64,000 bases of DNA from Acidobacteriota bacterium. Its GTDB lineage: Bacteria; Acidobacteriota; Thermoanaerobaculia; Multivoradales; Multivoraceae. The notes beneath the pieces were generated by a model that did no database searches, had not been told where the DNA came from, and saw nothing but the letters and a program-made list of their open reading frames with translations. Within the stretch, counting starts at the first letter, position 1. Every line of letters begins with the position of its first letter. The stretch spans positions 563,786 to 627,785 of the forward strand of contig JAPPCR010000006.1 in assembly GCA_028875725.1 (NCBI GenBank), in the 5' to 3' direction. Shown piece by piece: positions 25,870 through 42,836 of this stretch. A program made the position numbers and the translations under genes.

Positions 25870-26583
25870 ATGCCGAGTGCTCGCAAAGGCCAGGTGAGCC
25901 AAAGCAGCCGGATGGCGATTCCCACACATGGCCCATCGTGCCGGACTTGGACTTATCCGACGGCTTGCTGGGAATGCGGAAAAGCCATCCAAATCCTGCA
26001 GTGCACCTGTGGCAGCGTCGTGCTGTTGGAGGCCATGGGCTGGCCATGGCCACGGCACGACTGCCGTTCCCATAGTTCCGCATCCGGGGGTGTCGGCGGT
26101 AGCGGTCTGAGCGGCTGGACGGCAGTTAACAAACTGCGGCGCCTGGGGATCCCCATCACCGATGCTGCCATGGAGAAGATCTTCCCGGAAGAGAGATCAG
26201 GACCGCAAGTTACTCGTCCAGTTGAGGACACGAAGAAGGTCGACCCCTCGGGCCATGGGACGAAGGACCTTCTGGCCGTCTTGCGGGAGTTGCAAGAGAG
26301 GACACGTCGCACGGCGCTCATAGAGAGCCTCCCGGTGATGGGGAAGAAGCTGCTTGGCCTTGAAGCTCACGTCCGCTACTGGCAGGTGACGCTGGTTCGA
26401 AACGACGTGCAGCCGAATGAGAGCTACACAGCTTTCATTCCAGCGCCACTCGTGCGGACTCTACGGAGGGGCGTGATGGTCGCAGCGAAGATCGTGGCCC
26501 GTGGGCACGGCGAACAGGCGTGCTGGCTCGTCTCGGCCATCCGGGGTTGTGTGATCCCGGTGAAGTCTAGGAGCGATCCGTGA
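25870..26583 (+). CDS. hypothetical Cys-rich (zinc-ribbon-like) protein at the edge of the defence island
   Basis: Begins 40 bp after the Rieske-TPP stop, where GC drops. CxxC...CxC cluster (CRTWTYPTACWECGKAIQILQCTCG). Converges on and overlaps the brxA 3' end by 17 bp. Confidence 0.35.
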   Translation: MPSARKGQVSQSSRMAIPTHGPSCRTWTYPTACWECGKAIQILQCTCGSVVLLEAMGWPWPRHDCRSHSSASGGVGGSGLSGWTAVNKLRRLGIPITDAAMEKIFPEERSGPQVTRPVEDTKKVDPSGHGTKDLLAVLRELQERTRRTALIESLPVMGKKLLGLEAHVRYWQVTLVRNDVQPNESYTAFIPAPLVRTLRRGVMVAAKIVARGHGEQACWLVSAIRGCVIPVKSRSDP

Positions 26584-27322
26584 GAGCGACCAAGGCTTCT
26601 TGATCCAGTCCGTGATGCGTGACTTCAAGCGTGGTGCAGGCTTCAAGCTCTCTCGTGGACGGAAGGGACACATCGAACGGGAACATGTGGGGACCGTGTA
26701 GCAGTGCCCTGGCTTGCTGCGGTCGATCTCCCGTGGCTGCAAGCACCGCCTGGATGGCCCAGGCGGCGAGTTGATCCCGGTTCCCTACGACGCGCTTCGA
26801 TGTCGCGCTGTAGACGCCCTTTGAACCGCTTTCCTGAAGGACATCCCAGTCGATGAATGTCCGCAGAATCCGCCTCGTGGCGCGGGCCACCGTTTCGCGT
26901 TCACCGAACTGCTCACGGACGCGGCGCTGCACTTGGGCGGCACCAGCCGTTCCCTGTAGGCGCAAGAGCCGACCGGTCTGGTGTGCGACTTGCCAGAAGA
27001 ACGGGTAGGCCGCCATGCACATGCACCAGTGGACGAAAGTGCGTTCCGCTGCCGACGGACGTTGAAGCAAGTGGATCCCCTGGTCTCTCAGCCCCACGCG
27101 GTTTCTTGGGACGTTGGCCCACACCTTTGTCAGGATCGTGATCGCCTTGTGCCGGTTACCGCGCTTCGGTTCGTTGCCGACGGACAGCTTCTCCCGCAGG
27201 CGTTCGTTGAGTTCCGAAGCGATCTCGGCCGTCGTGTTGTCCGCGAGAACGAGGTTTGCCGTGTACTCCAGCCAGTCGAGCTGAATGCGCTGGCTGAAAC
27301 CGATCTGACCGGCTCGGTTCAT
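26567..27322 (-). CDS. brxA: BREX protein BrxA (DUF1819-like)
   Basis: 251 aa. Last gene of the minus-strand operon. 4 bp overlap with pglZ. Size and position fit BrxA of BREX type 3. Family assignment rests on context plus weak sequence recollection. Confidence 0.45.
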   Translation of the reverse strand: MNRAGQIGFSQRIQLDWLEYTANLVLADNTTAEIASELNERLREKLSVGNEPKRGNRHKAITILTKVWANVPRNRVGLRDQGIHLLQRPSAAERTFVHWCMCMAAYPFFWQVAHQTGRLLRLQGTAGAAQVQRRVREQFGERETVARATRRILRTFIDWDVLQESGSKGVYSATSKRVVGNRDQLAAWAIQAVLAATGDRPQQARALLHGPHMFPFDVSLPSTRELEACTTLEVTHHGLDQEALVALTDRS

Positions 27323-29367
27323 TCTGCTTTTCGCCTGATCTCGATCAAGGGGACGACGAGCTCTTCAAGAGAGACGCCGCCGTGCCCGACGATCCGGTCG
27401 CCTTTGTGCGCAAAGGCGGATCTGCCAGGCGCCAAGAGAGCGTGACAGTCGGTTGGAAGACCGGGCCCCGGCCACGCGACGGCGTCTGGGAACTGCTCAA
27501 GCACGCGGTTTCGCAGAGTCGTATCTGAGTAGACGCGCGCACGCTTCCCCCGCGTGCTGACAAGCGCTCCCTCAGAGGGCCGGCCGTAGCCTCGCGCCTC
27601 GACGTTGCCATGGTCCGACGTCAGAAACACGGCGAAACCAGCCTCGAGGAGCGACTCCACGATGGCCACGGGCTGGCCTTCCTCGGCCCACTGCCGGACC
27701 TGGTTGTGCATGCCGGCGACGCCCAGTTCCATGCCGTGCATGATGTCGTCTACCTTGTTGAGGACGACGCCGAGTACTCGCAGTCCACGCACGGAAGCGC
27801 GATCCCGCAACTCGTCGACGCTGTCGCAGGTGCCGCCCTTCAGATACTCGACTTCGTGCTCGCTCAGGCCATGTTCGGCCCAGAACCCATGCCACAGCGA
27901 AGGTTCCTTCTCGGTCGTGTGGATGCTCGACTCGAAGTAGAACGGCGGTGTGCCGGCAAAGATGGACTGGCGTGACACCGACGTGATGGTAGGCGCCCAG
28001 GCGAAGAGTGCATCTGACCGGAAACCGAGTGTTGGGCGTTGGTCACCAAGAACGTCGCGGAGCACGAGCCATTGGTCCAACGCCAGGCCGTCGACCACGA
28101 CCAGGGCGATCCTCCGTTCGGTCGCGTCTTCGAGCCGCCGGGCGAGATAGCGTGGCAGGTGATGGACCATCACCGGAGGGTCGGGCGGTAGGTTGTGCAG
28201 CCCAGCGTAGCGGCTCTCGACCCAGCCGCGAAATGCCTCATCCACCCGGCGACGGAGGCTGGTCAGGCGACCGCTCAACTGCTGGCGAGCCGGGGCTAGG
28301 GTGGACCACCACAGGACGCCCAGTTCCGCCCACAGCCAAGCGAACGACAGCCATTCCGGGTGTCTTACACCGGACTGAGGCACGACGCGATCGACGTGCC
28401 CCAGCAGCTTCTCAAGCCGGCGCAAGCGATCTACTTCGAGGTCGCTGCGGATTCCAACGGAGACCCAATCGCCGTGCCGGCCCAGTTCCGGCGCGTGGGG
28501 AACAGGGACGAGTTTCCCTTCAAGGAACAGGTTGTCGATGTACACCCGGACATCGGCGTGATCGAACGGCAGGTGGAGTGGTCCGTTCAGGATCAGCGGA
28601 CGCTCCGCCTTGATCTGCCCATCTTCACCCGCGCTGCCGTCTAGGAAGACAGGCCAGCGCTCTTGCAAGAAGGCGAAGAAGGCCTCTCGCTCCGGGACGA
28701 TGGTCTCAAGTGGCCACGACGCGAACGCTTCGTTCCGTCGGAGCACCGCGACTAGTCGTTCATCCAGTGGCCGCGGCAGCCGGATCTCGCGGTAGTGCCG
28801 CCGCAACAGAATCTGCAGGAGGTCGGCCGGGCTCTTGATCTCAGTAGCCCGAACGCCGAAGACGTGCTGGAGTACAAAGTCCTTCGTAGCCTTCTCGCCA
28901 AGTGCCTTAGGCCTGCGTTCCCTTTGTGCGTCATCAACCGCGTTCAGGTCGGCTGTGTCCAGTGTTGCGAGTACCGCACAACTGAGTTCGGGGAACAGCT
29001 CGGAGAGGCCGAAGCGCAAGGGTCTTCCAACCTGCAAGAGATCGTAGGGGATGGAGGCGAGATCGTCGTGGTCGAAACGTAGGAGTAGTTCCGCGTTCGC
29101 GCCTTCGGCATTGCCCGAGACGCGGGGGTGGCGGGATCGCATCTCGTGGGCAAGGCGGAACGCCACCGGATCCTCGAAAGTGAAGAACTGAAAGCCCCTG
29201 CGCCGGACCTCTTCGAGCACCTCTTCGTCGAGCAACAAGTCGTCCGGGTCGGCGGCCAGCGTTACCGACGCGACTCCCGGCGCTAGGTCCTCCAGGATCC
29301 TCTCACGCCAACTAGCCATCGGGACCACCGTTTCCTCGTGCAGCCGCGAGGTCACGGAACGTGCCAA
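27319..29367 (-). CDS. pglZ: BREX alkaline-phosphatase-superfamily protein PglZ
   Basis: 682 aa. C-terminal PglZ-type motifs (FLTSDHGNVEARG...GHGGVSLEELVVP). Confidence 0.7.
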   Translation of the reverse strand: MARSVTSRLHEETVVPMASWRERILEDLAPGVASVTLAADPDDLLLDEEVLEEVRRRGFQFFTFEDPVAFRLAHEMRSRHPRVSGNAEGANAELLLRFDHDDLASIPYDLLQVGRPLRFGLSELFPELSCAVLATLDTADLNAVDDAQRERRPKALGEKATKDFVLQHVFGVRATEIKSPADLLQILLRRHYREIRLPRPLDERLVAVLRRNEAFASWPLETIVPEREAFFAFLQERWPVFLDGSAGEDGQIKAERPLILNGPLHLPFDHADVRVYIDNLFLEGKLVPVPHAPELGRHGDWVSVGIRSDLEVDRLRRLEKLLGHVDRVVPQSGVRHPEWLSFAWLWAELGVLWWSTLAPARQQLSGRLTSLRRRVDEAFRGWVESRYAGLHNLPPDPPVMVHHLPRYLARRLEDATERRIALVVVDGLALDQWLVLRDVLGDQRPTLGFRSDALFAWAPTITSVSRQSIFAGTPPFYFESSIHTTEKEPSLWHGFWAEHGLSEHEVEYLKGGTCDSVDELRDRASVRGLRVLGVVLNKVDDIMHGMELGVAGMHNQVRQWAEEGQPVAIVESLLEAGFAVFLTSDHGNVEARGYGRPSEGALVSTRGKRARVYSDTTLRNRVLEQFPDAVAWPGPGLPTDCHALLAPGRSAFAHKGDRIVGHGGVSLEELVVPLIEIRRKAE

Positions 29368-29381
29368 GCGTCCTTGAAGCC

Positions 29382-31565
29382 TCAGAACGGGATGTCGTCA
29401 TCGGCTGGCTGCGTAGCTGCCGGCTGTTTCTCCGGCGCCTTCCGAGCGGTGCTACTCCCTTCCGTCATCCGTCTTGTGCCGGCCCACTCTTCGGCGATTG
29501 GCTTCCAATCGACGTCTCTTTGATCGCGTCCTGTCCACACTCCCCAGAACGCTGGGTCGGCCGAATCTGGGCGCTGGGTCTCGTGCAGTTCGTCAACCTC
29601 GACCAGTACTGGCGCCGATGCCGCCCAGCCAAGCAGAATCGCACGACGCGTCGGAAGGCTAGGGAGTTCCCGAAGCAATGTGCTCATTCCGTCGGGGACC
29701 ATTCGGCGCACCAAGTCTTGGTCCTGCCTGTTCACGATCCGGTGCAGCAGGAAAGTGCTGCACTGGGACAAAACTGTGGGAGACAGTTCGGATGGGCGCT
29801 GCGAACAAAGCACAAGCCCAAGACCGAGTTTCCTGCCTTCTCTGGCGATTCGGTCGAACACGCGCCCACAGGCGCGCTCGGCGCCGGTGGCCTCTTGGCC
29901 AGCCATAGCCCGATGCACGAATCTGTGAGCCTCCTCGAGGACGAGGACTGTTGGCAGGTCCCGTCGGTGATGGTGTCTGTATCTCTGATGGGCCTCAAAC
30001 GTGAGGCGAGCGAGAACTGCTACGACTATCTGGACGACATCGGATGGCACTAGAGAAAGGTCGATGATCGAGAGCTGGCCGTTGGCCCCGTCGTCTCCTA
30101 CTACATCGGCCAACCAATCGGAGAGTGCAATCTCCTCTCCGTCTGGTGGAAGTGCGATTGACGCCAGACGTCGTCGCCTTGTGAGGTCTCGAATACGGAG
30201 GTTCAGTGTGTCCACGAACTGGGCTATGTCTCGGCCTTGTGACTGCGCCGCCAATCCGTCGACGTAGTCAGGTAGCCTCTCAACTGGAAAGGGGCGCGGT
30301 TGGTCGTGGTCCCAAGCGGCTTTGTCGGTCGGTGGCTCAACCAAGTCGAGCACGTCGGCCAAGCGTTCCTCCACGTCTGCGATTCTGTTTGGCGCTAGGC
30401 TGCGGTGCCATTGCTTCCCCTTGGAGGGCAGCCCTTCACGCGCCTCCTGTTCGAGACGTGTCGCGGCTACTTGTACGGACTTCAGCGGTTCCCCCAGAGG
30501 CGAATGGCAACTCGTGGCTTCTCGGGAGAGTGCGCCGAATTCGTCTGCTGTGCTGGAGAGAAGATCTGCGACGTCCTCTTTTCCGCCTCCCTTTTCGTTC
30601 GGGCCTACCGCGACTGCGAGACGGAAGTCGCGCTCGTAGCGCCGTGCCACCCTGGCGACTCTTCTCGCCAAGGAGTTGGGAGGCTCAGCACCGGCTCGCA
30701 AGTGTCGGAGGGCTTTGAACAGCGTCGGGCGCTGGACACCAGGTGCCGCGGTCGTGAACGCGGCCCACTCTTCACCGTTCCAGAGCCAGGCAGGGACCTT
30801 GAGCTGTTGCGCTGCGTTGGTTGCTTTCTCAACCTGGAAGAGCCTCACGTCCAGGTCTGAGAAGGCGTGAGCGTACTCTCCGTGTGGGTCGAGGAGGATG
30901 AAGCGGGCGTTGGGAGGGCCTGCCCTTTCGTGTTGCTCCCGCGCGTTCGTCGCTTCGTTGATCGACTGTCGCAGCAGGCCGGCCACGGTACAGGACTTGC
31001 CGGAGCCCGTGTTTCCAAGCACTGCTAGGTGGCGTCCGAACAAACGGTCGGGGTCTACGTGCACGGGCGCATTGCCGGCGAGAGGTGCTTGGCCCAGAAG
31101 GACACGGCCCCGTGTCGCCGAGCGGTCGCCTTCAACGATTGCCTGAAGCTGTTCCCGGGTGGGCAAGAGGACTTGATCGCCGAGAACCGGGGCCGCGTCG
31201 ACACCACGGCGAAAGACGAGCGCGCAGCGGCCGTCCTGAAGTGTGCTTACGAGCGTTCCCAAGGGTACGAGTGATGCGATGCGTCGGGGAAAGGGAAGAT
31301 CCACGAATCCATGCGCTCGCGACTCGCCGGCCGGTGGGAATGGCGCAGGGCGGGCACGCACCGACGTGATCCAACCGACCGTTGAACCCACCTCGCTCGG
31401 AATCGTCAGGTAGGTGCTAATGCGAGGAAACGCAGTCGGCCGGCCGTTCGTGATCGCGGTCGCCAGCGGCGCCTCGGAGCTGATTGCTACCTCGATCTGG
31501 TTCGCCGACACCTCGTCGACGGTGCCAATTGCTCGGTCGCTTGGGTGTGAGCCGGAAGTCGTCAC
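29382..31565 (-). CDS. herA: HerA-like (FtsK/HerA superfamily, DUF87) ATPase of a SIR2-HerA defence module
   Basis: Walker A LAVLGNTGSGKSCTVAGLL. Walker B/LEEAH box VLVLEEAHRF. HerA signature GLGLVLCSQRPSEL. 4 bp overlap with the upstream SIR2 gene. Confidence 0.75.
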   Translation of the reverse strand: MTTSGSHPSDRAIGTVDEVSANQIEVAISSEAPLATAITNGRPTAFPRISTYLTIPSEVGSTVGWITSVRARPAPFPPAGESRAHGFVDLPFPRRIASLVPLGTLVSTLQDGRCALVFRRGVDAAPVLGDQVLLPTREQLQAIVEGDRSATRGRVLLGQAPLAGNAPVHVDPDRLFGRHLAVLGNTGSGKSCTVAGLLRQSINEATNAREQHERAGPPNARFILLDPHGEYAHAFSDLDVRLFQVEKATNAAQQLKVPAWLWNGEEWAAFTTAAPGVQRPTLFKALRHLRAGAEPPNSLARRVARVARRYERDFRLAVAVGPNEKGGGKEDVADLLSSTADEFGALSREATSCHSPLGEPLKSVQVAATRLEQEAREGLPSKGKQWHRSLAPNRIADVEERLADVLDLVEPPTDKAAWDHDQPRPFPVERLPDYVDGLAAQSQGRDIAQFVDTLNLRIRDLTRRRRLASIALPPDGEEIALSDWLADVVGDDGANGQLSIIDLSLVPSDVVQIVVAVLARLTFEAHQRYRHHHRRDLPTVLVLEEAHRFVHRAMAGQEATGAERACGRVFDRIAREGRKLGLGLVLCSQRPSELSPTVLSQCSTFLLHRIVNRQDQDLVRRMVPDGMSTLLRELPSLPTRRAILLGWAASAPVLVEVDELHETQRPDSADPAFWGVWTGRDQRDVDWKPIAEEWAGTRRMTEGSSTARKAPEKQPAATQPADDDIPF

Positions 31566-32908
31566 ACGTTTGCTACCTTGCCGTCGGGCTCCTCGTTCTG
31601 CCCGCCTCCTCCGACATGCGGGTCTGGTCGTGTACGCTTCAGGATTTCGGTCATGGTTCCGAGGTTGAAGTCGATGTAGGGCTTCGGCAAGTAGTGCTCG
31701 ACCAGCTCGAACAGGCTGCCAAAGTGCTCGCCGACCAGGATTGTGATCTGCTGCTCGCGCATGCTGGCCTTCACGAATCGCTCGGCCCGCCTGCCGGTGT
31801 CCTCGTAGGACAGGATCACGAGATGTGTCGACGGGATCGTGAGCATATCCCGGATCACCCGGTTCACGTGATCGTCACCGAAGCCGTAGCCGTAGGTGAC
31901 CAACACGGTGTCGGGTCGGCAGACCGCGGCTGCGAAGTCACGAAACAGGTCTGCGTAGGGATACTCCAACGTCTCCGTGTCCTTAGCGGCATTCGGGTAG
32001 ATCATCAAGCTGTTGGTTGCCCGTGAAGATACTTCGGAGTCAGTAGGTTCCGCGCCGAACGGAAGAGTGTGTTGGACGATCTCGGGGCCTCCTAGGTGAG
32101 TCTTGCGACTGTGCCAGTCGAGCGAGCCATGCAGCTTCGTGAGCCTCACGACGCCGTCGAGGTAGCGGGGCTCGCCGCGCAGCCCAGGGGGGTTGTAGTG
32201 CAGGTCGACAGCAGGGCGGGACGAGCGGAAGACTGGAGACAACCGTCCAACGAATCGATCGAGAACTCGGAGTCCCAGGAACTCGCAGCCGTACTCGATC
32301 AGTCTGTCGTAGTTCGTTGTAAAGATGTGCAGCCTTTCGCGAGAACCAGGGCGGTTACTGAAGGTCTGGAAGAAAGAGGATAGTAACCGTAGACCTTCTA
32401 CGTGGCCGTCCGCGAAGGCGTCCCGGATCTGACGCTCCGAGAGGAGTAGTGCATGCCAAAAGTCCTGCAGTGCGGTTTCGTACTCCCGCTCCCATGTGCG
32501 GAGCTGGGCCGAGGCGTCCTTGTCCCCGTGGAGTCCAAGAATGCGGAGCCCACTGACGAGCTCTGCAACGGCACGCATCTGGTCTTCAAAATTCGGTTTA
32601 CCGCGTGCCGAACGCTCGGCGGCATCTTCAGCGGCTTGCTGAATCGCACCCGCCATCTCGTGTCGAAACTCAACCATCCCCATATCCAGTGCTGCGACGT
32701 CCACTGCTGCGCCGACGGCCGTGGTCAGGCCACTACCTACGAGGAGGTTGACATGCTCGCCTTGGATCAGAGCAGAGAGCCAAGGCCGGATGTGGAGCTT
32801 CTGTTCTTCCGGATCAGGTGCCTCGTTCTTTGACCAGACATGGGTCCCGGCTCGAGCGTAGTGGGTGGGCCAGGCTGGAAGGCATGTGGCGTCGGCACTG
32901 CCGGTCAT
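31562..32908 (-). CDS. SIR2-family (SIR2_2) NAD+-binding/NADase effector of a SIR2-HerA defence module
   Basis: Motifs VNLLVGSGLT, IFTTNYDRLIE and KLHGSLDW are the hallmark SIR2_2 motifs shared with ThsA/DSR/SIR2-HerA defence proteins. 4 bp overlaps on both sides (pglXI upstream, herA downstream). Confidence 0.75.
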   Translation of the reverse strand: MTGSADATCLPAWPTHYARAGTHVWSKNEAPDPEEQKLHIRPWLSALIQGEHVNLLVGSGLTTAVGAAVDVAALDMGMVEFRHEMAGAIQQAAEDAAERSARGKPNFEDQMRAVAELVSGLRILGLHGDKDASAQLRTWEREYETALQDFWHALLLSERQIRDAFADGHVEGLRLLSSFFQTFSNRPGSRERLHIFTTNYDRLIEYGCEFLGLRVLDRFVGRLSPVFRSSRPAVDLHYNPPGLRGEPRYLDGVVRLTKLHGSLDWHSRKTHLGGPEIVQHTLPFGAEPTDSEVSSRATNSLMIYPNAAKDTETLEYPYADLFRDFAAAVCRPDTVLVTYGYGFGDDHVNRVIRDMLTIPSTHLVILSYEDTGRRAERFVKASMREQQITILVGEHFGSLFELVEHYLPKPYIDFNLGTMTEILKRTRPDPHVGGGGQNEEPDGKVANV

Positions 32909-35892
32909 GAGGCGGTCCGGGTCACGGCCTGGTCATACCAGAGTAGGAGCTTTTGGTCCTCCTGCAGGACTGTCGGAGGAAGTCTGTCAGCGACTCGGAT
33001 GATGGTGTCGTAGTCACCGTCTTGGTACGCGCGGAAGAAGCCAGCGCGGACGGCCTCAAGGCGGAAGAGCTTCAGGCGGCGCTGGGGTGCAGCGACGTAC
33101 TCCTTGAACTCGCGGAGGAGGAGACCGTTGCGGCGCTTCTCTACGTCAGCAGCTTTCTTCGGGTCGGGTACGTACCAGCGACCGGCGCCCTTCGCTTTCA
33201 GAGCAGGGTGGTCTTTAGGGAGTTTGCGAAGGTCCTTGTAGTTCGTCGAGAGATAGGAGTGGATCTGGCTGGGGACATCACCCGAGCCGCCGTAGAGGAG
33301 GAAGTTCTGGTCTAGCATGTCAGATAGTTCGGGTAGCTTCTCGTGCTTCAGTTGACTCCGCAGTTCGCGCAGGAAGGCTGGGTGGAGATCCTGAAAACTC
33401 TGAGGTTTGTGGAGCAGTTGCTGTCTCAGCCATTGGATCGTCGTCGCCTCGTCGCGGACGAAGATCTCCAACTGGGCCACCTCGCTGGCTGCCATTCTCT
33501 TCCGGTCGTACTCCGTGACCTGGTCGGGAAGGAAGACCATGCCGTCGCGTTCGGGGTAGCGCTGGCTGACGCCGACCAGGAACTCGCCCACGGACAGGGG
33601 CACGGCGACCTCGCGAAGGACATGGAAGGCGACCATGCGGTCGAAGAGGATATGAGGCTGCCGCTCGTGGACAATCTCGGTCCGGCCGTCCTTGGCCACG
33701 AAAACTGGAAGTTGCTTCAAGTGTGTGCGTAGGAAGTCCCAGGCGGCGTCCTCAGTGCCTTTGGTCAGCTCGAAGCGCCCTTCCAGGCCGTCGTTTGGCT
33801 TGTAGGCTGAGATGATGAGGTCCTGTTTGACGGCTGTGCTCGTTACCTGTTTGAACGATCCCTGGCTCTTGTCCATAGTCCGCACGTCGGCGACGACAAA
33901 ACCTGCCGCGAGCAGCCCTTCCTGAATCGCCGTCCAGACCGCGTTGCTGGAGTTATGGAAGACTACAGTAATCCAGCGACCTGGCTTGAGGACACGTCTG
34001 TACTCCTCGAACGCTCGTTGCATCAGGCGCTGGTACGTGGGTAGGCCCTTAGCTCTGACGCGATCGACAATTGCCTCTGGCGCCGCATTTGTCAGCACAC
34101 CGTGCCAGGATTCGATTAGGAAGTTCAGGTCAGCGTAGTAGATGTTCTCGCCGAAAGGGGGGTCGGTGAAGATGTAGTCTACGGAACCGTCGGGGACGCT
34201 AAGGGCCGCCGCCGTTCCCGCCGTCACGATACATGGGGCTCGTCCTTTGTCGTTGGCAGAAAACGCCTTGGCAAGCCGGGACAGCTTGTTGCCGAGGTTG
34301 TATCTGGGTGACACTTCTGCGATCTGGGAGCCTACGTAGTACACGCCGGACAACTGCCGATTGACTTGCGAACCGCCGAGCCGGCCGTGTTGGACCGGCT
34401 GGTAGCGATTGAGAAGGGACATCCCCCAGACGGCCTGCTCGACGAAGTAGAGCAGCATGTGTCGGACTCGTGGGTCCGAGTAGGAGCTGGCACGTCGCCA
34501 AAGAGCGGTCAAAGCGTGTGCGGCCCTTGGGAGGTAGAGGTGGTGTATGGCGGTTGTCTTCGTTGTTGCCATCCGCCCGACCCGAGTCATCTGGCATTCG
34601 GGAAGCGAATTGACTGGGAAGGCAGCCGGCAGCGGCATGGATGCGATCCGCTCGAGCAGGGCGGTGTCCGCTGATGTCGGGGTCTTTTCGTACCGTTCTC
34701 CGCCCACTCGATAGTGAATCAGGGCAGGTACACGTTTCGGACGTTGTCGCACCTCCCCGGTCGCAGGATCGACGTAGTTGTCCAGGCGGAGTTCCATGTT
34801 CTCCTTGCGGGCGACGGCACTGCACTGGGGACAGGCGATGGTCGGGTCGGTACGGCCTGTGGTCCTGTCTAGAGCTTCCAGCACGAAGACGAGTTCGGCG
34901 CCGCAGTTCAAGCAGCCGAAGACCTCGCTCCAGACCGTGTAGCTGATTCGCCCCTTCGTCCGCTCGTCCGTGTGCAGTGTCTCGTACATCCAGCCCAGTT
35001 CCGCATCGACCTCGTCGAGCAGTTTGCGACCAGCCTCGGCGAATTCGTCCACCTCGATGGGCAGCGTGTAGTTCGCCGCGATGAAGCCTGCGAGCGGGGA
35101 TAGGTCGTTCAGGATGGCCCGGCGAGCGCCCCATTTTGGCTTCCCCAGGCCCTGCTCCGCCCACGTCGCTTCGAGACGCTGGCGGTAGCTCTTCGGTGCC
35201 GACTCGCACCATTGAGCCGCGACGCCGGTCATCCCGGAGCCGGAGAAGCCGTCGAGAACGAGATCGCCTGGTTCGGTGTAGTGGAGCAGGGAAGGGAGGA
35301 TCGCTAGATGGGGCACCTTCGTGTGGTAGCCATGCGCTCGGTAGACGGCGTGTGTCTTCCCTTCCTTGACGTCGACGGCGAAGGGTGTGCGGCGGTATGG
35401 CTCGTCAGGGTCGTAGGGCTTACCGTACGTTGCTACGAACTCGTCCAGAAAGGGATTCGGGCAGGCGGTGTGCAAGGGCGGGTCGGACAGATTCAGGATG
35501 TCCTCGATTTCGCCTTCGGGGAAGCCGACCTCGTCCTTCCAGCGCTGGAGCAGGCCCTTGGTGCGATCCGCCGAGCGCATCCGTTCGACGAGCGTGCGGA
35601 GTTGCGCTTGGCTGCCCATGGGCCAATGCCGAATGGCCGAGAGCCGAGCCACGGCGTGCTCGGCACCGTCCCAGGGAACACCGTCGAGCCGAGTGTGGAG
35701 TTCCTCCAGCCCCTTTCTCAGCCTGCCCAGAAAGTGCTCCCGGCGTTCGTCGTCGCTCTCGAAGGTCAGCCCCAGGCATTCGACCGGGCCGTCGTTGGAG
35801 CCGTTCGTTGAGGAGGCCTTGTACAGCTTGTCTTGTGTGGGCGGCTCGGCGCGGCCACCGCGCACAGCGCCCGTCCACATGTCATTGGGCAT
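32905..35892 (-). CDS. pglXI: BREX type 3 adenine-specific DNA methyltransferase PglXI (DUF1156 N-terminus plus N6_N4 beta-class MTase)
   Basis: 995 aa. SAM-binding motif LVLDGFSGSGMTGVAA. Catalytic DPPF motif DYIFTDPPFGENIYYADLN. Confidence 0.65.
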   Translation of the reverse strand: MPNDMWTGAVRGGRAEPPTQDKLYKASSTNGSNDGPVECLGLTFESDDERREHFLGRLRKGLEELHTRLDGVPWDGAEHAVARLSAIRHWPMGSQAQLRTLVERMRSADRTKGLLQRWKDEVGFPEGEIEDILNLSDPPLHTACPNPFLDEFVATYGKPYDPDEPYRRTPFAVDVKEGKTHAVYRAHGYHTKVPHLAILPSLLHYTEPGDLVLDGFSGSGMTGVAAQWCESAPKSYRQRLEATWAEQGLGKPKWGARRAILNDLSPLAGFIAANYTLPIEVDEFAEAGRKLLDEVDAELGWMYETLHTDERTKGRISYTVWSEVFGCLNCGAELVFVLEALDRTTGRTDPTIACPQCSAVARKENMELRLDNYVDPATGEVRQRPKRVPALIHYRVGGERYEKTPTSADTALLERIASMPLPAAFPVNSLPECQMTRVGRMATTKTTAIHHLYLPRAAHALTALWRRASSYSDPRVRHMLLYFVEQAVWGMSLLNRYQPVQHGRLGGSQVNRQLSGVYYVGSQIAEVSPRYNLGNKLSRLAKAFSANDKGRAPCIVTAGTAAALSVPDGSVDYIFTDPPFGENIYYADLNFLIESWHGVLTNAAPEAIVDRVRAKGLPTYQRLMQRAFEEYRRVLKPGRWITVVFHNSSNAVWTAIQEGLLAAGFVVADVRTMDKSQGSFKQVTSTAVKQDLIISAYKPNDGLEGRFELTKGTEDAAWDFLRTHLKQLPVFVAKDGRTEIVHERQPHILFDRMVAFHVLREVAVPLSVGEFLVGVSQRYPERDGMVFLPDQVTEYDRKRMAASEVAQLEIFVRDEATTIQWLRQQLLHKPQSFQDLHPAFLRELRSQLKHEKLPELSDMLDQNFLLYGGSGDVPSQIHSYLSTNYKDLRKLPKDHPALKAKGAGRWYVPDPKKAADVEKRRNGLLLREFKEYVAAPQRRLKLFRLEAVRAGFFRAYQDGDYDTIIRVADRLPPTVLQEDQKLLLWYDQAVTRTAS

Positions 35893-37771
35893 CGGGGCGC
35901 TCTCCTTGGGTCGTTGCTGCGCTCTTGGCAGAGGCGCTCAGACGACGGGCCTTGATCGCGATGCCAGCCGGAGTGAGCACATAGGCTTGACGCGGATGGT
36001 GAGGCTGATCCGGATGAGTCATCTGGAGAACCCCCGTGTGCAGCAGGGGGTCCAGATGCTGCGCCTTGAAGTAGCCCCGGTTCTTCATTCTCACTGCCGA
36101 CATCAGCTCGGCCAGACGGCGGGGCGTATCGCAGAGCCGGATGATCCGATCCTGAACGGCCGTTAGCTCCGCCAAACCTGGACCTTGTGCAGTGGACAAG
36201 TTCGCCGTTGGCTGGCCGGGTTGTGCAGTGGACAAGTCTCCGGGCGGTGGTGCGGAGGGAGCGTCCGAGGACCGGAAAGCTCCGGCACGACCTAGTTCGC
36301 CAAGCTGCTCCTCAAGGTGAGCGGCCGGGACGAACAAGGGAGCCTCGGAGCCTTCAAGCGGCGAGATCAGCGCCTGAGCCGTCAGCCTGTTGAGGACGGC
36401 CATGACGTCGCCACCGGAGAGACCCGTCACGGCCCGAACATCGCCAAGTCGCAGACGTCCTTCGCGGCAGGCGAACGCGAACGCCCTGGATTCCGGGTCG
36501 CTCAAGCGAACCCCCAAGCTCGCTTGAAGGAGGAGTTGCCGTTCAGAGACGAGCTCCTCCTTGAGGAGAGTGATCTCGAAGGTCTTCTCGACCCTGTCGC
36601 TGGCGATGACAGGCGGCACGTGACCGAGCTGCCGCTGGTGGCCGAAGATGGCGCGAAGCCCTGAACCTGCCTGCTCACTCAGACCGATGCGACGGAAGGC
36701 CGTGACTATCCTCGGGTTGCGGACTGCCGTCCCTTGCGGTTCCAGGAGGGCCTCCGCCGAGACGAAAGCGTCTCCGGGGTTCCACAGCGACGTGCGGTCG
36801 TCATACGAGTGGATCTCCGCCTTGCGCGAGTGGTCGGCATAGTCCTGATGTATCAGCAGGTTGATCGCCGCCTCGCGGAACGCCGCGTAGTCCGGGGGAC
36901 GATCGGCTCGTTGCAGCGTCTCCGGGTGGAGAGCGAAGGGGACCTCTGCGCGTTGCAGATAGCGATTGTGAAGTACCTTCCACGCTTCTATGAGGTTCGA
37001 CTCGATGACGAGTCGGTCCGTCCATCGCTGGTCGTCGAAGCCGTCGGGCCAGTCACCGCGGTGCCACTGCCAGTCGACAACCGGTCGCGGCAGGAGTTGG
37101 TGGAAGGCCGACGGGCTACCGAACAACAGGACCGCCGCACGGGTTGGTAGGAGGCGGTCGCCCTTCTCGACTATGAGGCCCCATTCAAGAAGGAAGTCCG
37201 TGTCTGACCATTCCGGGTCATGGCTCAGGTTCCGATCTTCAAGGAGACGTCGGTACCAGCGGACGGACGAGGCGTCGAAGCACCGTTCGGGGTCGAGGTC
37301 CACCGCGACGCTGTCATAGGTGACGTCTGCGGCGTCGCGGAGCAACCGTTCGATCTCGGCTGGTGTACACCTTTCGTCGGCCGCCCCGCGGCGGAGAAAC
37401 GAGAGCTTGATGTCTCCATTCAGATAGACAGGTTTGTCCTGTCTCTGGGCTTCTGGAATGTAGAAGACGATCAGCGCCTTGCCTTCATCCTCTAGGAGCT
37501 GACCTTCGGCTTCGATGGCTCGGTTGAACTTCTGACCGGAGCGCAGAACTGTGAGGAAGTCGTTCTGCACTCTGTCGACTTCGATGACACCGACGACCTC
37601 AAGGTCGCCGTCTTTGTCGCGGACGCCGAACACGAGCCGGCCGCCTTGCGTGTTCGCAAACGCGGAGACGGTTGTGTAGGCCTCTCCTGGAACGCCACGT
37701 TGGGCGGCCTTGAACTCCAGATCTTCCCACTCGTAGCCCTTGATACGCCGGATGAGTTCTTCCCTGTTCAT
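35882..37771 (-). CDS. AlbA_2 (Schlafen-like) plus HATPase_c_4 divergent-AAA protein with C-terminal wHTH, inserted in the BREX operon
   Basis: N-terminus EDLEFKAAQRGVPGEAYTTVSAFANTQGGRLVFGV is the AlbA_2 signature. Family often mis-annotated as RecG-like. Sits between brxC and pglXI with a 6 bp gap and 11 bp overlap. Confidence 0.55.
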   Translation of the reverse strand: MNREELIRRIKGYEWEDLEFKAAQRGVPGEAYTTVSAFANTQGGRLVFGVRDKDGDLEVVGVIEVDRVQNDFLTVLRSGQKFNRAIEAEGQLLEDEGKALIVFYIPEAQRQDKPVYLNGDIKLSFLRRGAADERCTPAEIERLLRDAADVTYDSVAVDLDPERCFDASSVRWYRRLLEDRNLSHDPEWSDTDFLLEWGLIVEKGDRLLPTRAAVLLFGSPSAFHQLLPRPVVDWQWHRGDWPDGFDDQRWTDRLVIESNLIEAWKVLHNRYLQRAEVPFALHPETLQRADRPPDYAAFREAAINLLIHQDYADHSRKAEIHSYDDRTSLWNPGDAFVSAEALLEPQGTAVRNPRIVTAFRRIGLSEQAGSGLRAIFGHQRQLGHVPPVIASDRVEKTFEITLLKEELVSERQLLLQASLGVRLSDPESRAFAFACREGRLRLGDVRAVTGLSGGDVMAVLNRLTAQALISPLEGSEAPLFVPAAHLEEQLGELGRAGAFRSSDAPSAPPPGDLSTAQPGQPTANLSTAQGPGLAELTAVQDRIIRLCDTPRRLAELMSAVRMKNRGYFKAQHLDPLLHTGVLQMTHPDQPHHPRQAYVLTPAGIAIKARRLSASAKSAATTQGERPDAQ

Positions 37772-37777
37772 GAGAAG

Positions 37778-40700
37778 CTACTCGAGCACGATCCGGACCC
37801 TCGCCGGATCCTCTCCCTTGGTGAGACTGTCCACGTACTTCGCGAACCGCTGCTTCATCTCAGTGGGAGCTGCGGGCGACCCGCCGTCGAGCAGGGCAGT
37901 GCGGACCTCCCCGATGTTTGCCTCTACTTTGACAAGCCCCGATAGGACGGCGCGGACTCCGTCGATGAGCTCAGATGTCAGCGACTCGGGTAGCTCTCCG
38001 GACCGTAGGAAAGCCTCGACGGGCGTGCGGCGCTCAGGATCGAGCAGGGCGATGTTCTCGCTAGTCGAGGGATCGTCCAGGTTCGCGAGCAGTGTCTCGG
38101 ACCACGCCTTCAGTATCCCGTCGAGGCGGTCGTCAATGCTCGCCAAAGCCGTGGCTACGCCTGGAGAGGAGTCCTCCATTGAAGGCCTGAACTCGCAGTG
38201 GGAGCAGGTCGGCCTTGCATCGAGGTCTTCCTTGGTCAGCGCGAAACAGGTCGTTAGCCGCTCAAGTCCCTTTCGCAGGTCCTCCAATTGCCGAGTCGGT
38301 AGCAAGTCGATGGCCGAGAGGGTGTCGAGTCGCGCGAATCGTACGTCCCGAAGCAGGGCCGTCTTCCGGCGATCGTCGTTGACACCGAGCCGAGCCTTGG
38401 TGTGGAGGGTGAGGTACCGTTCAATGTAGTCCCGCTTGAGATCGTCGAGTGCGCTTAGCACTCGCCGGCGGACCGTAGCGGTGTCCTGGGGCGAGCGGTT
38501 CGCCAGTTCCGCGAGGACCGCTTTCCTTGTCGTCTGCAGCTGACGCGTCCATTCTTCGGAGGATGGGCCCGAGTTGGAGAGTGCGGCCTCGGCCGCGGCG
38601 AAGTAGGTCTCCGCGGGCGCAAGTTCCACTGCCAGACGTTGGGCGCTCTCGGCCTCGTCAAGAGCACGGATCGCCGCCTTGTGGCTCCTGACGTCACGGG
38701 CGTCCGGCCTGAAGTTCTTGAGCTTTCCGGGTGTGTTGAAGGCCTGGACCGTCTCCAGGAAGTTCTTGGTCCGTGCCAGGTTGAACACCGGATGCGCGGT
38801 CTCTTCCTCGCGGACGAGCGTTTGCCCCCAGAACTGAAGGCCGCCCCGAACCGCGTCTTCGGCGCGGACCAGACGGTCGATCATCTGCTGGACGCCGACT
38901 TGAAGTTCGCGAACCGGCGCCTCCTTGCCTTGGGTGACGAGCGCGGCGACGCCCGGGCTCTGGCCTAGCAGCTCGAACAGGGCGCGGAGGCCCGGGACGT
39001 TCCATTCCTTAGGTGGCTCGACATGCTTGAAGCGGGCCAGTTCATCGACCGAGATGGCGGCGATGGTCGAGAGGTCCGAGGCATCGAACTTCCTGCCTGA
39101 CACTAGGAGGACGAGGGCCCCAGCGTGCACCAGCGCCGCAAGCAGCACGACCACCCACTCGGGCTCCAAGCGGAGGGTTTGCGGGGCCATGTACTCGACG
39201 CCGAGTAACTCCTGGATCAACTCTGATCGGTTGACGACCTGGCCCTGGCCCTTTCGGCCCAAGGCATCCAGAATGTGTCGTGCGTACCGCGAGTTGTCGG
39301 GGTCCAGGCGTTCACCGTCGAGAAGCTCGAGCGCATCCAGCACGGCGGCAGCCTGCCTGGTCCTGGATGCTCCGGCTATGCGCCGTAACGCGTCCTGTGC
39401 TGCCTGCGGACGGCTCTCCGCGGTGATCAGCACCGAGAAGCTGGGATACTCCGGTGCCCGGTCTGCGAAGTGGGCCTCCAGACAGATGCCGGCAACTGCG
39501 TTCATCAGGTCGCGCAGGTTGATCCGTGAGGGAGTCGTCGCCGCGGAGAGCCCCGGAACAGCTTGACCTTCTGTCCATGCGAGCAGCGGCTTGCGCCGAC
39601 CCCGATGGACCACTTCAAAGGCCGAGTCCATGTGCTCTTGAAGCCAGACGACCAGGCTGCGAAGAAAGCCGGAGGCCTTCGACTCGTAGGTAGCTTTCGC
39701 GTGGCCGGAGGAGGTCGAGGCAAGTTCGGCCGCAGCCGCGTAGCTGCGCAGGATGTTCCGAAACTCGTCGTCCGCGCCCGTCAGATGGACCAAGACCTCG
39801 TCCTGTGCCCTCTCGTCCTTGAAAGAGGGGGGCTCGTTGGGCTGAAGGAAGTAGATGTAGAAGTCTCGCGGCGGTACGGCCGTGGATCGTTCGTTCGGAG
39901 CGCCGAAGAACAGGTAACCCTGACGTGCCGCCTTGCGGCTGCGCCATTCGAGATCGTGCTCCCAGATGCGGTAGCCCGTGACATAGGTTTCGTCCGTGCA
40001 CTCCATCGCCTGGCGAAGCGCCTGGTAGTAGTACCGGTCGAGCCGTGCCGGGTCGAGGCTCTCCGCCCGCCGCTCGATCAGGGCGTCGAAATCGTCCGTC
40101 TTCTTCAGGTCGAGGTAGTACTGGCCGTTCTCCGGGTTGGACGAGATGAACTGGCCGCTGACCGTCCGGTGGATCTCCCGGAGGACGGTCGCTACTTGAG
40201 AAACCAGGTCGTCGGTGGGGTCGCCCCCGAGGTCTTCGATGCCCTCCTGGTAGAGGCAGAGGCTGTCCCGCAGTTCAGCCGGTGTGGCGCCGAGAGGAGT
40301 GTCCAGACCTCCGGTGGTCAGTCGGTGGACCGAGAGCGCATGGATGATGCGAAGCGCCATCGGCTTGTAGTTCGGTCTGCCAAACGCCTGCTCCACTCGG
40401 GACTCGAGTACCTGACTGCAGTCGATGACAGCCTTGATGTCGGGAATGGTGCGGAAGGACGGGTTGCCTCGCAGCGTGGACCAGTAGTCGTCGTAGGCGA
40501 TCAGGCCCGGGTGTTCCGAGGGCAGTTCGCACGCCAGAAGTCCCTTGATCGACAGTGAGAGGGTCTTCAGCACCTCCCGCTTCTCGGCTGCGGTTACGCG
40601 CTCGAACGTATCCACATAGTCGGGGTGAACAGGAAACAGGTCGACAAACTCGTCCAGCCGTTCGTTCATCCGTTCGTAGAAGCGGGTGAAGGGCGAGAGG

Positions 40701-41518
40701 TACTCGCGGATGCGGGCGTGTTGCTCGCCTGACTTCCGCAGCAGGCGCTGCGCGACGACGTACTTCACGTCCTGTCGGGCGATGTGGACCTGTTCGAAAC
40801 GGTCGCGAACGCGCCGGACGCTTTCGCCGATGAAGGCGAAGCGGTGGTGGTCGAAGACAGCCTCTTGAACGCCGGCCACAAACCGGAATCGGAGGTCCTT
40901 GCAGACTTCGCCAACCTCGCGCAGGAAGTTCAGGTCGAGGATGATCTGCTGATCGTCGCGGCTGCGGAGATAGTCCAGCAGTTCGTCGACCACCAACAAC
41001 AGACCGTGATCGGGATGCTCTGCAAGGAAGGCCGTGAGCATCTCCTCGAAGGCCCGTTTGCTGCTCGAGACCTCGGCGACGCTCGGGAAGGAGTACGCGA
41101 CCCCGAGGGCGCGGAGACCTTCCTCGAGGGTGTCGACCACGATGTCGCGCAGAGGCATCGTCGTGGCCCCGATCTCCGTTCGAACGACCTTGAACTTGCC
41201 GGCTATTGCGACGGCCTGCTCGGAGACACCGGAGTGGGTGAGGACCTTCGCCAGGTCCTCATGCTCGGCAACACCGGAGATGACGGACATAAGGTGTGAC
41301 TTGCCGGTGCCGTAGTTGCCGACGATGAGGATGCCCTTGTTGTCGGCCGGCGTGTCGTACTGAAGCTGCGGAAAGACCACGGACGTGAGCTTCTCGGCCA
41401 TCTCGTCGGAGATCACATAGGTGCTCACGAGGCGGCGGGCCGCTTCGGTTTCGTCCGCGTCGCGAAGCTGAACGACGGTCTCGATCGGGTCGAACTGGAC
41501 GAGGTCTTCGTACTTCAT
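37778..41518 (-). CDS. brxC: BREX ATPase BrxC/PglY (DUF499 P-loop NTPase)
   Basis: About 1247 aa from the internal ATG (MKYEDL...), which overlaps the brxF stop as ATGA. P-loop [18 protein letters not shown] near the N-terminus. Size typical of BrxC. Confidence 0.7.
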
Positions 41519-41997
41519 CCTGCGGCGGGTTCGACGTTGACGATCTGAACGTCGTCGATCGGGTAGTGGCGATACTCGGGATGGCCGGGTTCGGCGTAAC
41601 GGAGGTGGTTGCCGTGAGTAGCTCCGCTCCAGGCAGCGACCACGGTCCACTGGCGCGAGAGGTCCTTCAGGAGGCGGAACGGGTTCTGACGGAGTGCGGT
41701 GTCGAACAGCAACTCCAGCCTGTCGAGCAGAACGACTTTGCTGTCCAGTTCGGCGAGTACTGCTTCAAGGAGCCGCCGGACTTGGCGGGGACGCTGAGAC
41801 GAGGTCAAGTGGAGGAGACGGCGAGAGAGTTCCAAGTTCACGTTGACGAGAGGAGCGCCCGCCGCTTCTGCGACTTCCTCCAACACTGCGGCCTTGCCTC
41901 GGCCGTTGGAACCGACGAGAAGGACGAGGCGCTCGCTTCGTTGCTCGGCGTGGTGGATCGCCACTGTCACTTTCCGGGCGAGATCGGTGGTCATCAA
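41515..41997 (-). CDS. brxF: BREX type 3 small P-loop ATPase BrxF
   Basis: 160 aa. Walker [15 protein letters not shown]. First gene of the operon, immediately upstream of brxC with ATGA overlap. Confidence 0.55.
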
Positions 41998-42092
41998 GCG
42001 CTGCCGGTTATCGGGTCTTGGGGGCGACGACGATCATCGCGGGACTCTACACGCCGATACGCTTGGTTGGCTGCGGTAGCCTGACGTCGATG

Positions 42093-42836
42093 ACGATCGG
42101 CGGCCGTGAAGAGCTGGAGGCCCTGCGCCGGGCGGGTCGGGTAGCGGCCCGATGTCTGGCGCGTATGGGCGAGGCGCTCGAGCCGGGCATGACGACCGCC
42201 GAACTCGATCTGATCGGTCGGGAGTACATGGAAGCGCGCGGCGCGCGTTCGGCGCCCGAGTTCTGCTACGACTTCCCGGCCGCGACCTGCATCAGCGTCA
42301 ATGAGGAAGTCGCGCACGGCATCGCGGGCGACCGGCGGATCGAGGCGGGCGATCTGGTCCACGTTGACGTGTCGCTCGAACTCGACGGCTACTTCAGCGA
42401 TACGGGCGCGGCGTACCCGGTGCCGCCGGTGAACGAGGTGCGGCGGCGGATGATCTCGGCCACCCGGCGGGCGCTGCGGGAGGCAATGCGGCAGGCGCGC
42501 CACGGTCGCCGCCTGCGCCACATCGGCCGCGCGATCGAGGAGACGGCGACCAGGGCTGGTTTCGGCCTGATCCGCAACCTGGGCTCGCACGGCATCGGCC
42601 GCTCGCTCCACGAGGAGCCGAAGTTCGTGCCTGGCTTCGACGACCCGAACGACGACCGCTTCCTGCATGACGGCATGGTGCTGACGATCGAGCCATTTCT
42701 TACCAACGGCCGCGAGCAGGCGAAGACCGCGAAGGACGGCTGGACGCTGCTCAACAGGCCCGGAACGACGACGGTCCAGTTCGAGCACACGATCATCGTC
42801 ACCCGCAAGAAACCGCTAGTGATGACCTTGCCGTAG
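42093..42836 (+). CDS. map: methionine aminopeptidase, type I
   Basis: Conserved MetAP-I blocks (CISVNEEVAHGI, HVDVS, GHGIGRSLHEEP, EPF). Start set at internal Met MTIGGREELEAL; the ORF extends to 42018. Confidence 0.7.
   Translation, partial: TIGGREELEALRRAGRVAARCLARMGEALEPGMTTAELDLIGREYMEARGARSAPEFCYDFPAATCISVNEEVAHGIAGDRRIEAGDLVHVDVSLELDGYFSDTGAAYPVPPVNEVRRRMISATRRALREAMRQARHGRRLRHIGRAIEETATRAGFGLIRNLGSHGIGRSLHEEPKFVPGFDDPNDDRFLHDGMVLTIEPFLTNGREQAKTAKDGWTLLNRPGTTTVQFEHTIIVTRKKPLVMTLP

Follow-up and report, generated by a model that had tools for sequence, protein, structure and literature searches.

A Schlafen-GHKL ATPase gene embedded as optional cargo in type 3 BREX operons

Two published catalogues describe Schlafen proteins associated with bacteriophage exclusion (BREX) systems. 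The first, in Nucleic Acids Research (NAR 2026, PMC12839542), lists BREX-associated proteins composed of a Schlafen domain, a 'minimal histidine kinase', and a winged helix-turn-helix (wHTH) domain from at least 1017 taxa, and interprets them as backup suicidal RNase effectors. The second, in Nature Communications (Nat Commun 2026, PMC13462974), groups Schlafen-ATPase-DNA-binding proteins into 'Cluster 2', which is tightly associated with BREX. Here, we analyze a member of this class from a 64-kb stretch of the genome of an Acidobacteriota bacterium (contig JAPPCR010000006.1, positions 563,786 to 627,785), referred to as the window. Gene X is our shorthand for the open reading frame (ORF) at positions 35882..37771 on the minus strand of the window, and X denotes its product. 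X corresponds to the NAR 2026 and Cluster 2 proteins in architecture and in context, as they are located in or immediately beside the BREX core genes. Gene X is real, but it has already been described as a class in these publications.

Schlafen proteins have been linked to tRNA cleavage in several prokaryotic systems. The SLFN-pAgo protein RzAgo binds ATP-Mg through E314 and N318, and ATP drives its tetramerization, which is followed by tRNA cleavage. The tetramer pairs single-lobed Schlafen domains into a nuclease resembling the bilobed one of mammals (bioRxiv 10.64898/2026.05.29.728809). Taboada et al. define the Schlafen catalytic motif as Ex4(E/D)xK, and the HisKinase-HTH class (HTH, helix-turn-helix) makes up 19.2% of their 5,930 prokaryotic Schlafen proteins (pSlfns). 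In the same work, RorSlfn5 is triggered by the tail assembly chaperone of T5-like phages to cleave tRNA, which results in abortive infection (bioRxiv 10.1101/2025.07.24.666596). Cash cleaves tRNA when triggered by cyclic tetra-adenylate (cA4) (Nat Commun 2026, PMC13462974). Embedded and co-transcribed abortive or restriction modules are known from other BREX operons, such as PARIS in the type I BREX of Salmonella and BrxU in the pEFER BREX. The six-gene set of type 3 BREX (BREX-3) consists of brxF, brxC, pglXI, brxHII, pglZ, and brxA, and the literature reports BrxHII in 77% of BREX-3 overall. Type 3 is the least studied BREX type, and the way in which BREX stops phage replication is still debated.

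In our favored explanation, gene X is an optional accessory that functions in defense and encodes a prokaryotic Schlafen protein. The orthologous clade to which it belongs is found almost exclusively at the junction of brxC and pglXI (brxC|pglXI) of BREX-3 operons, with which it is probably co-transcribed.

Architecture and catalytic centers of X

Gene X is an ATG-to-TGA ORF encoding a 629-residue Schlafen-GHKL-wHTH-wHTH protein ('Schlatpase-HTH'). It has the same orientation as the BREX-3 genes and is closely packed among them. The ATG of gene X begins 6 nucleotides past the brxC stop codon, and its last 11 nucleotides are overlapped by the start of pglXI, the ATG of which, at position 35892, is preceded by AAGGAG. 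A first-pass annotation of the window had placed the gene between brxC and pglXI with an 11-nucleotide overlap, as the junction sequences confirm. Its coordinates and length of the ORF are correct, and the strings EDLEFK and SAFANTQGG that it quoted are present in the translation. The observations of this annotation hold in every detail, and its interpretation holds in part, since the proposed regulatory role and the argument built on the overlap do not stand. More than 2000 homologues of X were found, and the top 120 homologue clusters are full-length, 53–93% identical to X, and contain the same domains; gene X is therefore far from a chance ORF.

The N-terminal α/β Schlafen/AlbA_2 nuclease domain of X (residues 1–147, positions 37331..37771; all segments of X are on the minus strand) contains a match to SLFN_AlbA_2 (PF04326) at residues 14–135 (E 2.6e-14, 54.2 bits, cutoff 25.3), and the PADLOC SLFN-pAgo model matches residues 32–219. 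A structured middle region of helices and strands (residues 148–290, 36902..37330) joins the Schlafen domain to the ATPase. Pfam search gave no assignment for residues 148–290, which include conserved alignment columns and have high predicted local distance difference test (pLDDT) scores except for residues 243–248. The GHKL (Bergerat-fold) ATPase domain (residues 291–405, 36557..36901) matches HATPase_c_4 (PF13749) at residues 318–401 (E 4.3e-12, 46.3 bits, cutoff 26) and PDB entry 3LMM at residues 296–390. It is followed by the first, MarR-like winged helix (residues 406–494, 36290..36556), with helices and strands predicted at residues 410–494 and a weak, sub-threshold match to MarR_2 at residues 423–469. 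The second winged helix, of the Fic-like_C type, forms the C-terminal domain (residues 536–621, 35909..36166; PF21247 at residues 548–600, E 6.8e-11). The domains named by the first-pass annotation, AlbA_2, HATPase_c_4, and a C-terminal wHTH, are thus borne out by the Pfam search. The order of Schlafen, GHKL, and C-terminal HTH domains in one polypeptide is that of the Schlatpase-HTH or pSlfn HisKinase-HTH proteins. X is a 'Schlatpase' (Schlafen and GHKL ATPase) with C-terminal HTH domains.

The structure of X was predicted with AlphaFold2 from a 119-sequence alignment covering three subfamilies, and the resulting model is confident (pLDDT 86.5, predicted template modeling score 0.70). An earlier prediction from 28 close homologues reached a pLDDT of 52 and was discarded. 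Foldseek identified 3LMM, the protein DIP2311 of C. diphtheriae, as the best match across the whole length of X (E 1.7e-23). It also returned 2KYY for the N-terminal domain, the Fic protein 4RGL for the C-terminal domain, and MarR-type repressors, with MarR/ScpB-type matches for the first winged helix. A profile search of PDB sequences likewise links the N-terminal domain to 2KYY (3.8e-13) and the C-terminal winged helix to 4RGL (5.7e-5). In the same search, the active-site region of X aligns with that of rat SLFN13, as well as those of SLFN5, SLFN11, and SLFN14; SAFANTQGGRLVFGVRD of X corresponds to SAFANTQGGYLLFGVDD of SLFN13.

The two winged helices are connected by a disordered linker (residues 495–535, 36167..36289; pLDDT below 50 at residues 496–531) containing two 12-residue 'LSTAQ' repeats. 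In the X family, the repeats have the form 'L(S/V)T.Q', and 454 of 522 intervals between them span 12 residues. The copy number ranges from 0 to 20 in the orthologues (for example P0032, L021, and L023), with two copies in the window. The final repeat runs into the first helix of the C-terminal winged helix. In the window gene, where the linker has just two diverged peptide repeats, Tandem Repeats Finder detected no tandem repeat at the DNA level.

The catalytic motifs of X are nearly invariant among the 211 orthologues over which conservation was counted. In the Schlafen motif E14-x4-E19-x-K21, both glutamates are present in 211/211 sequences and the lysine in 210/211. The downstream acidic residue D52 is aspartate or glutamate in 186/211 orthologues and lysine in 19. 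Of the GHKL motifs, the N box retains E300 (210/211) and N304 (211/211), G1 retains D334 (209/211), and G2, spanning G363–G371, retains G369 and G371 (210/211) and G363 (at least 209/211). X combines the PF04326 match with the Ex4(E/D)xK motif and the downstream acid D52 of Schlafen proteins, and the PF13749 match with the E-x3-N N box, D-x-G-like G1, and glycine-rich G2 lid of GHKL ATPases. The Ex4ExK motif and the GHKL E/N, G1, and G2 boxes are kept across the three subfamilies, the mutual identity of which is 23–26%. Judging from this conservation, the nuclease and ATP-binding centers of X are intact and under strong purifying selection.

The first-pass annotation had suggested a BrxR-like role for X. 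In this reading, X would bind DNA and control transcription of the operon containing BREX and SIR2-HerA genes, in line with its older label 'predicted HTH transcriptional regulator' (COG2865). X has two winged helices, one of them MarR-like, some sources name its homologues 'transcriptional regulator', and a scan of window ORFs next to the operon yielded no WYL/BrxR-type gene, unlike in plasmid BREX-3 loci. However, the Schlafen and GHKL motifs are essentially invariant in the 211 orthologues, which suggests that X is an enzyme and not a BrxR-like regulator. Moreover, related X-bearing operons on plasmids possess a WYL regulator of their own, and gene X is located in the middle of its operon, not divergently or at the operon head. 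BrxR proteins have a wHTH-WYL-WCX architecture and are encoded at the operon head, whereas Pfam finds no WYL domain in X. All experimentally studied prokaryotic Schlafens are nuclease effectors. We therefore consider a regulatory function improbable. It is possible that X has a DNA-sensing accessory role mediated by its C-terminal winged helices, as the first-pass annotation had also proposed.

An effector acting on DNA or phage nucleic acid is a similarly doubtful alternative. In this scenario, X would be a restriction-like nuclease guided by its winged helices, which could bind DNA. BREX is without a well-defined nuclease effector, and NAR 2026 (PMC12839542) catalogues numerous DNases located within BREX loci. 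Nevertheless, all three characterized prokaryotic Schlafen systems cut tRNA, and the active site of X has the same Ex4ExK motif.

Databases name the relatives of X 'ATP-dependent DNA helicase RecG', 'transcriptional regulator', or 'RNA-binding domain-containing protein', all of which are uninformative. The RecG identity was rejected as a legacy misnomer, as X has neither the wedge domain nor the superfamily 2 motor of RecG, just the GHKL-type HATPase_c_4 domain. The names 'RecG helicase' and 'transcriptional regulator' are misleading for the X family and are corrected here.

The brxC|pglXI junction

When one genome was scanned for each GTDB species, 366 relatives of X were identified, the best 80 of which (L001–L080) were examined. 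They are 44–96% identical to X, the closest being that of locus L018 (96%), and belong to Acidobacteriota, Proteobacteria, Binatia, Planctomycetota, Chloroflexota, Spirochaetia, Latescibacterota, Gracilibacteria, and other taxa. Gene X is inside a BREX-3 operon in 68 of these 80 loci, and in 57 of the 68 it starts within about 60 nucleotides of the brxC stop codon, usually 6–16 nucleotides. The short gap is seen across more than 10 phyla. The first-pass annotation had called for a survey of BREX type 3 loci for the same insertion, and the gene is indeed mostly found in the same brxC|pglXI slot. Located between these two genes in the window, and with relatives in BREX-3, X belongs to the BREX-associated Schlafen accessory proteins. 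In the remaining loci, brxC is reduced to a 3′ remnant beside gene X (4/80), gene X accompanies a pglXI-like gene with no brxC (3/80), or gene X is solitary among housekeeping genes or adjoins other genes (5/80).

In loci L003, L004, L010, and L048, gene X is flanked solely by a 3′ remnant of 2–13% of the length of brxC, and X of L053 is itself without residues 1–222. These loci look like decayed BREX-3 systems in which gene X outlived the core, or the reverse. In L026, L134, L144, and L147, the X orthologue is downstream of pglXI, not upstream. Because of these few loci, we regard the brxC|pglXI slot as preferred, not obligatory. Some BREX-3 operons (L001:15121-16404, L063:17364-18677, L070, and L079:15552-17312) contain a second Schlafen-GHKL gene after pglXI, besides gene X after brxC. 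The second paralogues are 427–586 residues long and about 30% identical. The second copy in L001 (427 residues) matches SLFN_AlbA_2 and HATPase_c_4 only, and is a member of a very large, tightly conserved family of about 412 residues.

Gene X is an optional, embedded accessory of BREX-3, because near-identical BREX-3 operons occur with and without it. Among seven plasmid records with a DUF6079 BrxC, gene X is present in two and missing from five. Leisingera thetidis pBMJM1_5 (L082) and Roseicitreum antarcticum pRA04 (L083) share the operon WYL-brxF-brxC-(X)-pglXI-brxHII-pglZ-brxA, in which a separate WYL (BrxR-type) gene is located upstream of brxF. Their BrxC proteins are 95% and their BrxHII proteins 92% identical, and gene X is present only in pRA04. 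Their PglXI proteins are 56% identical. The swapped cassette extends from the brxC stop codon to approximately residue 570–595 of PglXI, the N-terminal two-thirds of the protein, and includes gene X in one of the plasmids. The sequences point to a recombination that swapped the methyltransferase/target recognition domain region together with the cargo.

When metagenomes were scanned with the Leisingera BrxC as seed, 80 loci with BrxC 78–99% identical to it were obtained, of which 75 are informative for the brxC|pglXI junction. The junction is empty in 21 of the 75 loci and holds gene X in 11–13. The other identifiable cargo comprises PD-T7-3 (8 loci), an SfsA-like nuclease (4), HEC-01 (3–4), OLD-family ATPase-nucleases (2), SIR2-HerA (2), and PDC-M61 (1). 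The junction also accommodates proteins of about 645 residues (L117:13731-15668; 11 loci), about 219 residues (L122:4944-5600; 10 loci), about 450 residues (L127:9764-11116; 3 loci), 246 residues (L093:13751-14491; 1 locus), and 142 residues (L102:10637-11065; 2 loci), which had no Pfam, PADLOC, or NCBIfam match. These proteins replacing X at the junction are candidate new defense genes. A core component would be present whenever the system is present; gene X is missing from 5/7 plasmid and at least 21/75 metagenomic loci, and it lies outside the six-gene BREX-3 set. No PADLOC or NCBIfam BREX model matches X, in agreement with the first-pass statement that it is not a canonical BREX component.

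Pairwise-distance correlations were computed over 44 complete loci. BrxC and PglZ correlate at 0.96, X with BrxC or PglZ at 0.65–0.69, PglXI with the core at about 0.5, and X with PglXI at 0.43. The moderate correlations of X with the core indicate that X travels largely, not strictly, with the operon. The cassette swap between the Leisingera and Roseicitreum plasmids had suggested that X and PglXI form a co-inherited module, which was rejected given their correlation of just 0.43.

The BREX-3 operon of the window and the pglXI|pglZ slot

The BREX-3 operon of the window contains, in order on the minus strand, brxF (41515..41997; BREX-3 P-loop protein, NCBIfam NF033453, PADLOC BrxF), brxC (37778..41650; DUF6079, BREX-3 type, Pfam and PADLOC), gene X, pglXI (32905..35892; methyltransferase, PADLOC PglXI), SIR2 (31562-32908) and HerA (29382-31565; both PADLOC, NCBIfam, and Pfam), pglZ (27319-29367; BREX-3 type, NCBIfam NF033449, PADLOC PglZ), and brxA (26567-27322; PADLOC BrxA). 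The spacings range from -11 to +14 nucleotides throughout, SIR2-HerA included. The longest brxC ORF overlaps brxF by 136 nucleotides, and the DUF6079 and BrxC models begin at residue 45; the true brxC start is probably near position 41518, with an overlap of a few nucleotides with the brxF stop codon. The ORF at 41994-42788 (minus strand, 264 residues), upstream of brxF, was considered as a regulator, but its arginine-rich, antisense-like translation matches no family, so that the ORF is probably spurious.

The BREX island (26567-41997, 15.4 kb) has a G+C content of 62.7%, compared with 69% in its flanks, which consist of housekeeping genes including those of a thiamine pyrophosphate enzyme, a CoA-transferase, and a TonB receptor. 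The lower G+C content is consistent with horizontal acquisition. The flanks of the island yielded no tRNA gene, and a scan of flanking ORFs revealed no integrase.

The SIR2-HerA pair is located between pglXI and pglZ, the canonical BREX-3 position of brxHII, and overlaps its neighbors by 4 nucleotides. It is clearly a second embedded cargo system, autonomous, in the BREX-3 operon of the window. The first-pass annotation had argued from the overlapping position of gene X against a passenger gene. However, as the autonomous SIR2-HerA overlaps its neighbors too, a tight overlap is no evidence of core status; in addition, operons occur with and without gene X, and the junction is a cargo hotspot.

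No BrxHII helicase is encoded anywhere in the 64-kb window. The pglXI|pglZ slot was scored in the 59 of the 80 loci in which both pglXI and pglZ are visible. It is empty in 22, so that the operon has the six genes brxF-brxC-X-pglXI-pglZ-brxA, and contains BrxHII in 14 and other cargo in 23. The other cargo includes Ppl, HEC-02, PDC-S28, Mrr-STAND, IetAS, a reverse transcriptase, and a second, shorter Schlatpase. The slot of L018 holds a Ppl (PHP-ABC ATPase) gene, and SIR2-HerA occupies it only in the window, compared with the 59 loci. The alternative raised by the first-pass annotation, that X itself is a BrxHII-type helicase, was not borne out: true BrxHII proteins of the relatives match PF00176/PF00271 and the PADLOC BrxHII model, and Pfam finds no SNF2 or Helicase_C domain in X. 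A general rule that X replaces BrxHII was ruled out, since both coexist in alphaproteobacterial operons.

These loci bear on a closer integration of X with BREX-3, in which X would dock on BrxC and/or PglXI and act as an effector arm, or as a guard when phage inhibitors block BREX. As part of this explanation, X would fill the role of the sixth gene in a BrxHII-less subclade that includes the window. The near confinement of the X clade to BREX-3, its short gap to brxC, and its distance correlation with BrxC and PglZ speak for integration, as do the presence of BrxHII in just 14 of the 59 loci with X, compared with the 77% reported BREX-3-wide, and the 22 six-gene operons. A guard that fires when phage inhibitors such as DNA mimics block BREX has a precedent in the PARIS module of Salmonella BREX. 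On the other hand, X is missing from BREX-3 operons whose BrxC is 95% identical, X orthologues stand alone, and X occurs together with BrxHII in alphaproteobacteria. The correlation of X with the core is far below the 0.96 of BrxC and PglZ, and the low frequency of BrxHII is confounded by phylogeny, as it reflects one subclade. Integration is thus rather unlikely. In its most specific form, which we also find unlikely, the BREX-3 Schlatpase clade would partner specifically with BrxC/PglXI, sense the state of BREX or unmethylated DNA by means of its tethered winged helices, and convert BREX failure into ATP-dependent tRNA cleavage. If this is true, X would be the sixth functional subunit in the BrxHII-less subclade and would define a distinct 'BREX-3 with Schlafen' subtype.

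Proposed function and comparison with known systems

We hypothesize, with a probability of about 0.55, that X is an ATP-gated, oligomerization-activated tRNase that serves as a second-line abortive effector, with its winged helices as a sensor or auto-inhibitor. This reading is an analogy, based on the behavior of RzAgo, RorSlfn5, and Cash systems. ATP bound at the GHKL domain would drive the oligomerization of X, and the oligomerization would pair single-lobed Schlafen domains into an active nuclease. The nuclease may then cleave tRNA and halt translation, resulting in abortive infection. The C-terminal winged helices, positioned on a repeat tether of variable length, could be the sensor or the auto-inhibitory module. 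X would ride in the BREX operon as a second-line effector, neither a regulator nor a core subunit of BREX. Two considerations weigh against this mechanism. For the X clade, the proposed substrate, trigger, and abortive phenotype are all transferred by analogy. Furthermore, the fidelity of X to its slot (68/80 loci in BREX-3, 57 of them within about 60 nucleotides of the brxC stop codon) is above the expectation for random cargo, and together with the moderate distance correlation to BrxC and PglZ it hints at functional coupling.

As a frequently occurring accessory packed against brxC, X provides a tractable handle on whether BREX operons join a methylation-guided first-line block with an abortive, tRNA-cleaving backup. 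If the proposed tRNase mechanism is true, the Schlafen antiviral mechanism, which reaches from bacteria to humans, would extend to the commonest bacterial architecture, GHKL-HTH. Both junctions of BREX-3, brxC|pglXI and pglXI|pglZ, are cargo hotspots and thereby useful places to look for new defense genes.

X resembles RzAgo in the succession of PF04326 and PF13749, and the E/N pairs of the two proteins nearly coincide in position (E300/N304 and E314/N318, respectively). In contrast to RzAgo, for which ATP-driven oligomerization and tRNA cleavage are experimental results, X has no Argonaute core and has two winged helices after the ATPase. As the Argonaute core is lacking, the sensor of X cannot be based on a guide RNA. 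The Ex4(E/D)xK Schlafen domain fused to a histidine-kinase-like ATPase and HTH is shared by X and the pSlfn HisKinase-HTH class, for which no mechanism has been published. The mechanistically studied pSlfn, RorSlfn5, has an Ig-like sensor rather than the GHKL-HTH architecture. The structural-genomics entries 3LMM and 2KYY, both of which are without known function, are 18–31% identical to X and differ from it in domain orientations (template modeling scores 0.35–0.45). PARIS (OLD-ABC/TOPRIM) and BrxU (GmrSD) belong to families unrelated to X and to another BREX type. X and rat SLFN13 are nearly identical in the segment 'SAFANTQGG.L.FGV.D', and X shares the Ex4ExK motif with mammalian SLFN11/13/14; however, the mammalian nuclease domain is bilobed and is paired with a superfamily 1 helicase/ATPase, whereas X is single-lobed and contains a GHKL ATPase. 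Finally, NAR 2026 and Nat Commun 2026 are catalogues that do not include a fixed brxC|pglXI slot, presence/absence polymorphism, alternative cargo, or the repeat linker. To these catalogues, our analysis adds the preference for the brxC|pglXI slot, clear-cut presence/absence polymorphisms, two BREX-3 cargo hotspots with recurrent unknown genes, a BrxHII-less six-gene variant, and a linker of 0–20 copies of a 12-residue repeat.

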